Part shown: positions 35,010 through 36,399 of the stretch, piece by piece
Layout: each line of letters opens with the position of its first letter
Numbering within the stretch: the first letter of the stretch is position 1
Assembly (NCBI GenBank): GCA_044337105.1
Contig: JBIIOE010000004.1
Location: 3,172-67,171, forward strand
Reading direction: 5' to 3'
DNA: 64,000 nt
Source: Bdellovibrionota bacterium
GTDB lineage: Bacteria > Bdellovibrionota_C > UBA2361 > OMII01
Translations under genes and position numbers: made by a program
The notes under the pieces: model-generated
The model's input: the letters and a program-made list of their open reading frames with translations, nothing else
Database searches by the model: none
Told to the model about the DNA's origin: nothing

Positions 35010-35026
35010 TGTCCCACCGTGGGACA
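35010..35026. promoter_or_regulatory. parS-like 17-bp palindrome TGTCCCACCGTGGGACA
   Basis: The arms TGTCCCAC / GTGGGACA are perfect around one central base. It starts 2 bp after the parB stop. The half-site differs from canonical parS (TGTTTCAC) at two positions. Confidence 0.6.
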
Positions 35027-35043
35027 GCTTCTAATATCGTGAA

Positions 35044-36399
35044 TTGACAATAAAATGGACGCTGGATGCAGTGTCCCACGGTGGGACAGTGAATAAGGTT
35101 CGCATTGGTCTTGGGTATCTAAACTCGCTAGCACCCTGGAATGGAAGGGGTGGTTTCGCTCTACAGCCCATAAAGGAGCTTCTCGCTCGCCTTGGGGATC
35201 CTCAAGACACTCTTCCGATCTTGCATATAGCTGGAACGAACGGAAAGGGGTCGGTCTCGGCTACATTGGGCTCTATTTTGGCCCAATCGGGCTATCGAGT
35301 GGGCCTCAATACCTCTCCGCACCTCGAATCTCTTAATGAACGGGTTGTTGTCGACGGGTGGCCAGTGGCTGACGAGGTGTTGGGCGAGCTCGCCTATGAT
35401 TTGCGCTCGGCAGCACATAAGGGAGGCGACCAGATATCCTTTCACGAGGCGATAACGGCACTTTCCTTCCTGTGCTTTCGAGAGCTGCAGGTGGAGTGGG
35501 GAGTTGTAGAGGTGGGATTAGGGGGGCGTCTGGATGCTTCTAATGTCATTTCACGACCCGCCGCGACTGCCATCGTTACTATCGACTACGACCATCAGCA
35601 CATTCTAGGTAGCACTCTTGCAGAGATAGCTGCTGAGAAGGCCGGCATTGTTAAGCCCGGATCGCCGTTAATTAGTGGTCTGCTGCCGCTTGAAGCTCTC
35701 ACGGTAGTAAAGCGCGCTGCTAAAAACGTACCGCACCGCCAGTTCGGACAGGACTACGATGTTCGTCGGATTGAGGGGCAGGGTAGACGATTCGGGTATT
35801 GGAATAAGTTTTGTCCGTCTGGGCAGAATGTAGCCTTTGAATTCGAGTCGCCGCTCTTTGGTGTTCACCAAGGCCACAATATGGCAGTCGCAGCTACTGT
35901 CGCATTGGAGGTTGGGTTGGCTCCTGATGCGTGCAAGCGTGGCATAGAGGGCGTGTTCTGGCCGGGGAGGCTCGAAGAGTTTGAGGTTCTAGGTCGCTCT
36001 TTTGTGCTCGACGCAGCTCATAACCCCGCAGGAATACTTGCATTCATCTCTTTCTTACGGGCACGCAATGCGAGTGGTATCGATCTGACCTTTGGAGCGC
36101 TCGATACCAAGAATTGGGAGCTTATGTTGAAGCAGCTCCTACCCTTTATCAAAACCCTACGCCTCCTTCAGCCTGAATCTGAGCGGGCTCTTCCGGAGGA
36201 GCGTATTGCTGACTACGTTACGGCATCGGGAAACGACATAAGGATAATTCGATACGGTCTGGATTACGAAGAGTGTGTACGCGACCTACTTGCCGATAGC
36301 GGGGCACCCCCAGCCTACGTAACTGGCTCGATGTATATGCTAGGAAGACTCAGAAAGATGCTCTCGCTACCAAAGAGGCCGCTGTGGACGAGAAGCTAG
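35044..36399 (+). CDS. folC: Bifunctional folylpolyglutamate synthase / dihydrofolate synthase
   Basis: HIAGTNGKGS is the P-loop. The Mur-ligase-like body has AAHNPAG. The true start may be GTG 35089, because the TTG 35044 extension overlaps the parS-like sites. Confidence 0.85.
   Translation: MTIKWTLDAVSHGGTVNKVRIGLGYLNSLAPWNGRGGFALQPIKELLARLGDPQDTLPILHIAGTNGKGSVSATLGSILAQSGYRVGLNTSPHLESLNERVVVDGWPVADEVLGELAYDLRSAAHKGGDQISFHEAITALSFLCFRELQVEWGVVEVGLGGRLDASNVISRPAATAIVTIDYDHQHILGSTLAEIAAEKAGIVKPGSPLISGLLPLEALTVVKRAAKNVPHRQFGQDYDVRRIEGQGRRFGYWNKFCPSGQNVAFEFESPLFGVHQGHNMAVAATVALEVGLAPDACKRGIEGVFWPGRLEEFEVLGRSFVLDAAHNPAGILAFISFLRARNASGIDLTFGALDTKNWELMLKQLLPFIKTLRLLQPESERALPEERIADYVTASGNDIRIIRYGLDYEECVRDLLADSGAPPAYVTGSMYMLGRLRKMLSLPKRPLWTRS
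35072..35088. promoter_or_regulatory. Second parS-like palindrome TGTCCCACGGTGGGACA
   Basis: Same arms as 35010-35026 with the complementary central base, 62 bp downstream of the first site. Confidence 0.6.

Follow-up and report, generated by a model that had tools for sequence, protein, structure and literature searches.

Why should a bacterial genome carry, immediately beyond a parB gene, two palindromes that resemble the chromosomal centromere parS and yet depart from it in length? The question is raised by a 64,000-nucleotide stretch of DNA from an uncultured Bdellovibrionota bacterium (contig C55:3172-67171 of a 225-contig assembly; this whole stretch is referred to here as the window), in which a partition gene that we call parB2 is followed by two 17-bp palindromes. 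A preliminary description of this DNA, made from the letters alone, had read each palindrome as perfect 8-bp arms around a single base, and both 17-mers are present exactly as it described them. Our analysis indicates that they are very probably parS2, the lineage-specific centromere of a conserved, large second chromosome that has a plasmid-type origin.

The two sites are reverse complements of one another, the sole difference being the central base (C versus G), and the 80-bp gap from the parB2 stop (35008) to the likely GTG start of a folC-like gene (35089) is filled by both 17-mers. Because one palindrome with two 8-bp arms around a free base is expected by chance about once per 64 kb (64,000 x 4^-8), a lone copy would carry little weight, and the repetition is the significant point. 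The same 16 specified bases appeared twice, 62 bp apart, in 0 of 100 shuffles of the window. A search of the whole assembly (3.8 Mb, 225 contigs) at up to two mismatches returned 2 matches, both of them the sites themselves. The genome-wide search proposed in the preliminary description thus finds two copies in 3.8 Mb, and the palindromes are not common repeats.

The second parAB pair that the preliminary description had advised looking for is present on contig C43, where parA1 and parB1 are accompanied by three perfect 16-bp canonical parS (TGTTCCACGTGGAACA). Two of these lie upstream of parA1 and one in the 34-bp gap between parA1 and parB1 (L007, 3511-4467); the canonical 16-mer is confined to this contig, and dnaA is on contig C44. 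The parS2 palindromes lie downstream of parB2, unlike parS1. Relative to parS1 of the same genome, each arm of the 17-mer carries a single base change (position 4, T to C; arm TGTCCCAC in parS2 and TGTTCCAC in parS1), and one base pair is inserted at the centre. The preliminary description had correctly recognized the extra central base; its count of two T-to-C changes is here refined to one when the parS of the same genome serves as reference. With its length of 17 bp, its additional central base and its C (or A) at the fourth arm position, the site does not conform to the 16-bp consensus TGTTNCACGTGAAACA. The presence of dnaA together with two ParBs was also found in 14 relatives, most of which have canonical parS.

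A scan with ParB2 recovered 29 orthologous loci in metagenome-assembled genomes (MAGs) of uncultured Bdellovibrionota, at 51-92% identity. All the genomes used here are MAGs, and no closed circular record is among them. The 17-mer is present at 29 of 29 loci in 2-5 copies each. At 28 of the 29, copies lie about 5-460 bp past the parB2 stop, with a site 5-25 bp past it; at the most distant locus, copies flank parB2. The DNA on either side of the sites is not conserved among these loci, and an alignment of 69 sites from 30 loci has 17 near-invariant positions between variable flanks, with a G:C central pair in 68. The order repA (on the minus strand), spacer, parA2, parB2, sites, folC and ispA is retained in nearly all 29 loci.

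The same association extends well beyond the close relatives. At the level of the order, and allowing no more than one mismatch, the motif occurs in 75 of 91 genomes (51 of 55 high-quality ones) and in 31 of 39 genera, nearly always as two clustered copies with zero elsewhere in the genome. Across the whole lineage, 89 of 124 genomes contain an exact match to TGTMCCACNGTGGKACA, again clustered, and a reversed-pattern control gives about 0 matches. Relatives carry 1-6 copies, always clustered at parB2. The location at the 3′ end of parB, which the preliminary description had called classical for a centromere, stands as a feature of the lineage, the sites being kept beside parB2 throughout. ParB2 orthologues are found in about 84 of the 91 genomes of the order, and the module as a whole is conserved in 48 of 64 genera. 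Among 14 incomplete genomes checked, G043, G044, G025, G090 and G023 lack a ParB2 orthologue or any ParB match and are also without the motif.

Families that seemed to be without the motif carry TGTACCAC-S-GTGGTACA, also 8+1+8, between parB2 and folC, in which the fourth base of the arm is A. Hybrids of the two forms, for example TGTACCACGGTGGGACA, are also met with repeatedly. Such hybrids would disrupt a hairpin, and they are easily explained if the protein that reads them accepts C or A, and not the canonical T, at position 4.

The protein encoded next to the sites has the domain layout of a chromosomal-type ParB (PF02195, 2.7e-29; PF17762, 2e-08), with intact motifs for binding cytidine triphosphate (CTP), GERRFRA and ENLQR, and the gene for its cognate Walker-type ParA directly precedes it in a shared operon. 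Among solved structures, ParB2 comes closest to those of the chromosomal ParBs from Myxococcus (7BNK), Thermus (1VZ0), B. subtilis (6SDK) and Caulobacter (6T1F), and it matches chromosomal ParBs at E values of about 1e-30, compared with 8e-20 for KorB. Within the genome it shares 31% identity with ParB1; ParA2 shares 42% with ParA1 (contig C43) and is 85-97% identical among same-genus orthologues. The recognition helix of the parB2 helix-turn-helix (HTH) has diverged (LSISKSAVQRSLEILQLP): where the four structures and ParB1 share the canonical helix GK(x)R(s)xVANxLRLLxLP, ParB2 has SISKSAVQRSLEILQLP. The helix SKS(A/M)VQRSL(E/D)IL and the following AESKVLLL are almost invariant among ParB2 orthologues down to 51% overall identity. 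A diverged and frozen DNA-reading surface next to a diverged and frozen site has the look of a cognate pair. The ParB2 helix did not covary with the choice of C or A at position 4 of the arm; both variants occur alongside an identical helix.

On what kind of molecule does this pair reside? A family search found repA in single copy in the genome, and in the spacer between repA and parA2 the iteron-like sequence TTAYCTCAGTTCACGA recurs about eight times, in either orientation; TCACGA cores number 9 in this 600-bp spacer, compared with about 1 per kb elsewhere in the window. GC skew turns from negative to positive at the spacer, and it also flips sign at the same spacer in four relatives. The spacer (32745-33351) is the probable origin of the replicon, and the palindromes, clustered near parAB and rare elsewhere, lie 2 kb from its iterons and skew switch. 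The closest plasmid relatives of RepA come from Planctomycetes, Rubrobacter, Deinococcus and Thermus plasmids, at 22-38% identity. The contig has a GC content of 53.7%, compared with 54.6% for the genome, and argS, folC and ispA, each in single copy in the genome, flank the module. The locus has two hallmarks of a chromid: a plasmid-type initiator and origin in place of DnaA and oriC, with core genes and host-like base composition.

The better-assembled relatives speak more directly to separateness. In G101 (3 contigs, 5.1 Mb), dnaA lies at C1:2,067,288 with three canonical parS 37 kb off, and repA, parA2, parB2 and the 17-mers lie at C2:583-589 kb. Along this second contig (1,866,914 bp), skew stays negative as far as about 580 kb, is then positive until about 1.42 Mb, and beyond about 1.48 Mb is negative again up to the contig end. 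Such a profile is that of a circular, self-contained replicon that initiates at the repA locus and has two arms, one of about 0.90 and the other of about 0.96 Mb. In G024 (5 contigs, 2.64 Mb), dnaA and five canonical parS lie mid-contig on C2, at a skew flip, and on C3 the cumulative skew is lowest at 692,386, within the parA2-repA spacer, and peaks at 41.6 kb. Overall, G024 has two skew minima and two maxima, that is, two origins and two termini.

How the G024 contigs belong together can be judged from their ends (L215, L249, L250, L269, L270, L283, L284). A repeat of about 2.3 kb is common to C1_end, C2_end and C3_start at 93-98% identity, and short terminal overlaps join C3_end with C1_start and, inverted, C2_start with C5_start. 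These contig-end repeats suggest that chromosome 2 consists of C3 and C1 (about 1.25 Mb) and chromosome 1 of C2 and C5, possibly with C4. The 2.3-kb repeat is probably a mobile element whose multiple copies interrupted the assembly; rRNA operons were considered as the cause of the breaks and rejected, as Rfam gave tRNA only at those ends. Genes of the window are distributed over G024 with 13 on C3, 5 on C1 and two weak matches on C2.

The G025 genome offers the converse case. It is one contig of 2,283,970 bp with dnaA, ParB1 and canonical parS, and with one origin and one terminus by skew; it is without ParB2 and the 17-mer, and its marker completeness is 82%. It is probably chromosome 1 binned alone, the whole second chromosome having been lost (L338-L357). 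In G003 and G010, too, the skew changes sign precisely at the locus, and in each of the 8 relatives in which both were looked for, dnaA and ParB2 are on different contigs. Taken alone, G024 would permit a single chromosome whose repA locus sits in a small block of inverted skew, as the positive arm is visible there for only 17 kb before C3 ends. This arrangement is rejected for the lineage on the strength of G101, in which the positive arm is about 900 kb long, and of G003, in which it continues for at least 52 kb, to the contig end.

Judged by the GC skew of the well-assembled relatives, the repA locus appears to be the origin of a separate replicon of 1.25-1.9 Mb. In this lineage, the RepA/iteron replicon would then be a second chromosome accompanying an ordinary DnaA chromosome, and not the sole one. 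The preliminary description had expected a secondary replicon here, and that expectation is supported by the PF10134 initiator and iteron-rich spacer at the locus and by the large replicon that, to judge from skew, starts there in these relatives. In the small, AT-rich relative G003 (L297, C17:340000-356000), repA, parA2 and parB2 are each split into several frames and two imperfect 17-mers remain; the dnaA open frame of this genome is also short. The broken module could reflect decay after chromosome fusion, or assembly frameshifts.

Table 1 Features of the partition locus and its neighbours in the window.
Feature	Position	Strand	Remarks
argS	29349-31082	-	Adjacent core gene, single copy
repA, plasmid-type replication initiator	31131-32744	-	Pfam RPA PF10134, 1.9e-18; weaker TrfA and Rep3 matches
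Probable origin spacer, about 600 bp	32745-33351	.	AT-rich stretch and iteron-like repeats
parA2, Walker-type partition ATPase	33352-34146	+	AAA_31 and CbiA matches; overlaps the parB2 start
parB2	34133-35008	+	ParB_N CTPase domain, HTH, C-terminal dimerisation segment
Putative parS2 site 1, TGTCCCACCGTGGGACA	35010-35026	.	8+1+8 perfect palindrome; 2 bp past the parB2 stop
Putative parS2 site 2, TGTCCCACGGTGGGACA	35072-35088	.	8+1+8 perfect palindrome; immediately precedes the probable GTG start codon at 35089 (folC-like gene)
folC-like Mur-ligase-family gene	35089-36399	+	Single copy; first core gene downstream
Polyprenyl synthase, IMPase-family gene, ankyrin-repeat gene	Downstream of the folC-like gene	+	Neighbouring genes

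The surroundings of the palindromes (Table 1) hold further detail. Since no terminator lies between them, the folC-like gene is probably co-transcribed with parAB2. The string GGGACAGTGAATAAGG, which spans site 2 (35072-35091), is retained in several same-genus relatives, and the only Shine-Dalgarno-like bases before the folC-like GTG, GGTGGG, are those inside the site 2 palindrome. To judge from this overlap, occupancy of site 2 by ParB2 could alter folC translation or transcription. Between the palindromes, a 13-mer (ATCGTGAATTGAC, 35036-35048) is identical to 33269-33281 in the origin spacer; it contains TTGACA and resembles a reverse iteron, and TCGTGAWTTGA is retained at this place in several same-genus relatives. 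The 13-mer may be an additional iteron-like RepA site, coupling the centromere with the control of replication, or else a promoter element common to both places. Further downstream, a partial third copy of the palindrome (GTCCCACGGTGGG, 38047-38059) was considered as a functional site and rejected: it codes for YRPTVGMM in an IMPase/CysQ-like gene, is kept only in the three nearest relatives (L128-L130) and is probably incidental coding sequence.

Could the palindromes serve something other than partition? One account grants that they load ParB2 and makes of ParB2 mainly a CTP-dependent regulator or organiser like KorB or Noc, one that silences folC-ispA, loads SMC or controls RepA, rather than a segregation protein. 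It draws on the position of site 2 against the folC start codon, on the TTGACA-bearing 13-mer that the intersite region shares with the origin spacer, and on precedent: the KorB clamp, which represses transcription, is loaded at a palindrome of odd length, 13 bp, centred on G/C (PMC11790492), and V. cholerae ParB2 also regulates the replication of chromosome 2 (PMC3141006, PMC3688505). However, the ParB2 studied here is always paired with a highly conserved ParA2 and is closer in sequence to chromosomal ParBs than to KorB. The sites, moreover, shift relative to folC in distant relatives, lying between parA2 and parB2 in G024 and within parB2 in L156, which makes a fixed role as folC operator unlikely. 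We consider a chiefly regulatory ParB2 improbable, and a regulatory role could coexist with partition. It is more unlikely again that the palindromes are operators of some other transcription factor for folC-ispA or the parAB2 operon, with no relation to ParB2. Spaced perfect palindromes are typical of dimeric regulators, and site 2 does overlap the folC translation start region. Yet the sites track parB2 and not folC (G006 and L156 keep them without folC after parB2), the motif is absent where the ParB2 orthologue is absent (G043, G044, G025, G090 and G023), and the arm is one base away from the canonical parS arm of the genome. Copy numbers of 2-5 and spacings from 26 to about 1100 bp also speak against such operators.

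The palindromes might instead act in RNA, as hairpins or as a stem between site 1 and site 2 in the parB2-folC transcript, and so form a terminator, attenuator, processing site or stabiliser. The region does fold, at -46.8 kcal/mol (z = -5.0), with site 1 paired with site 2. Against this, no U-tract or T-run follows either site and a terminator scan of 35010-35088 is empty, so an intrinsic terminator fails. A 1-nt loop is impossible, so a single site yields a weaker hairpin; the central bases are identical and not complementary in many relatives, and recurrent hybrids of the form TGTACCAC-S-GTGGGACA disrupt the pairing. The sequence itself is invariant over the 69 sites beyond what pairing potential would ask, and in some relatives parB2 is flanked by the sites or contains them. 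Taken with these points, a role in RNA has only a slight chance of being correct. Slighter still, to the verge of negligible, is the chance that the palindromes are random matches or copies of a dispersed element, of the repetitive extragenic palindrome (REP) or miniature inverted-repeat transposable element (MITE) kind, unlinked to partition. This idea takes its force from the unrelated Rhodobacterales (L008-L087; for example, Tabrizicola NZ_CP192600.1 and Citreimonas salinaria NZ_FNPF0100000x), several genomes of which carry the same 17-mer, TGTCCCACNGTGGGACA, as a multi-copy dispersed repeat, with at least nine loci of quite different context on one Tabrizicola chromosome. In the present genome and about 90 relatives, by contrast, it forms only a small cluster beside parB2, with about 0 matches to the reversed pattern and 0 in shuffles, and the genome-wide counts refute a dispersed REP/MITE repeat for the lineage.

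The palindromes, read as parS2, can also be compared with known systems. Canonical chromosomal ParABS, with parS TGTTNCACGTGAAACA (B. subtilis Spo0J, Caulobacter ParB, Thermus Spo0J), has in common with the present locus two 8-bp arms near parAB and the origin, and a ParB of the same domain layout and CTP motifs. It differs in that the site here is 17 and not 16 bp, with an extra central G:C, and has C or A, never T, at arm position 4. The recognition helix here is SKSAVQRSLEIL in place of GKxRSxVANxLRLL, and the replicon is driven by RepA and not from oriC. V. cholerae chromosome 2, with its RctB-iteron ori2, is likewise a secondary chromosome that is conserved, that has iterons, an initiator of plasmid type and a ParAB pair of its own, and that carries an odd-length, lineage-specific centromere near replication control elements, with universal parS on the primary chromosome. 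The two differ in initiator (RctB there, RPA PF10134 here), in site sequence and in site number (10 parS2 sites in V. cholerae, 2 here), and ParB2 here is of chromosomal type. For V. cholerae parS2, the fragments used were 15 bp long, and the site is confined to vibrios and photobacteria (PMC3141006), conservation at the level of a family, compared with a phylum- or class-level lineage here.

The ParABS systems of Burkholderiales secondary replicons (Bsr) similarly place several systems in one cell, with parS-like centromeres that avoid cross-reaction by a few base changes. Their centromeres are all 16-bp palindromes with a central CG, as in chromosomal parS (PMC5450999), whereas an extra base separates the arms here. 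The KorB operator OB of the IncP plasmid RK2, TTTAGCGGCTAAA, spans 13 bp around a central G/C and is where KorB is loaded as a CTP clamp (PMC11790492). It shares with the present sites a ParB-family clamp at an odd-length palindrome with a central G/C, and so indicates that the family can use odd-length geometry; it differs in having 6-bp arms of unrelated sequence and in that KorB is chiefly a transcriptional repressor. With both OB and Vibrio parS2 known as odd-length ParB sites, the geometry here has precedent. Deinococcus and Thermus secondary replicons use the same initiator family, PF10134, to drive large housekeeping replicons, and an RPA-family search of control genomes matched exactly Deinococcus and Thermus. 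RepA identity to these is about 22-25%, and no relationship of their centromeres to the 17-mer was seen. The apparent novelty, judged from the sequences, is that a chromosomal-type ParB is paired with a site built of canonical parS arms, each with one substitution, that a single base pair splits apart. Full-text searches found the core sequence in no paper of the library covered, and among the papers that they listed none connects Bdellovibrionota or Oligoflexia with a chromid or second chromosome.

Several considerations weigh against the identification of a second-chromosome centromere. The 225-contig assembly of the window cannot by itself place C55 on a separate molecule, so that separateness rests on the relatives, and skew is an indirect sign of origin use. 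We infer ParB2 binding, clamp loading and insulation from ParB1 from family knowledge and co-conservation, in an organism that is uncultured. There are only two sites per genome, fewer than in many chromosomal parS clusters, and site 2 overlaps the folC ribosome-binding region, so a regulatory role is conceivable. A 1-bp insertion shifts the phasing of the half-sites by about 34 degrees, and we know of no chromosomal-type ParB shown to load at half-sites split by one inserted base pair.

If the palindromes are nevertheless parS2, the system might work as follows. Replication of the second chromosome would be fired by the plasmid-type RepA at the iteron- and AT-rich spacer. A ParB2 dimer would place one HTH on each 8-bp arm, TGTCCCAC, with one G:C pair between the arms, bind CTP through GERRFRA and ENLQR, close as a clamp and slide to the flanking DNA, and ParA2 would segregate the complex of ParB2 and site, 2 kb from the origin. 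The primary chromosome would be served by DnaA and oriC and by ParA1B1 with canonical 16-bp parS. Cross-reaction between the two systems would be avoided by the one-base change in the arm, the extra central base pair and the rebuilt recognition helix of ParB2.

A broader proposal goes beyond this locus, and we advance it tentatively, as something that may well prove wrong. The lineage, a freshwater, uncultured group of phylum or class level represented by 124 species genomes, may have been bipartite since its origin, with two chromosomes of comparable sizes, the second fired by RepA. Its parS2 would in essence be parS plus one base pair, and orthogonality would come mainly from half-site spacing and not from base identity.

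For metagenomics, the findings carry a warning that bins of this lineage can drop a whole chromosome: G025 looks complete as one contig and is only 82% complete. Such chromosome-loss bins matter for completeness estimates in the lineage. For chromosome segregation, the genome offers two ParB/parS systems that naturally coexist in one cell and whose sites are set apart by a single base in each arm and a single base pair of spacing; in such a pair the rules of ParB clamp loading and of centromere incompatibility are directly testable. The second chromosome, if real, would add to the short list of multipartite bacteria a group with unusually ancient and evenly split genomes. Should the lineage indeed have been bipartite since its origin, it would hold the deepest-rooted bipartite genome known, together with a new rule of centromere insulation.

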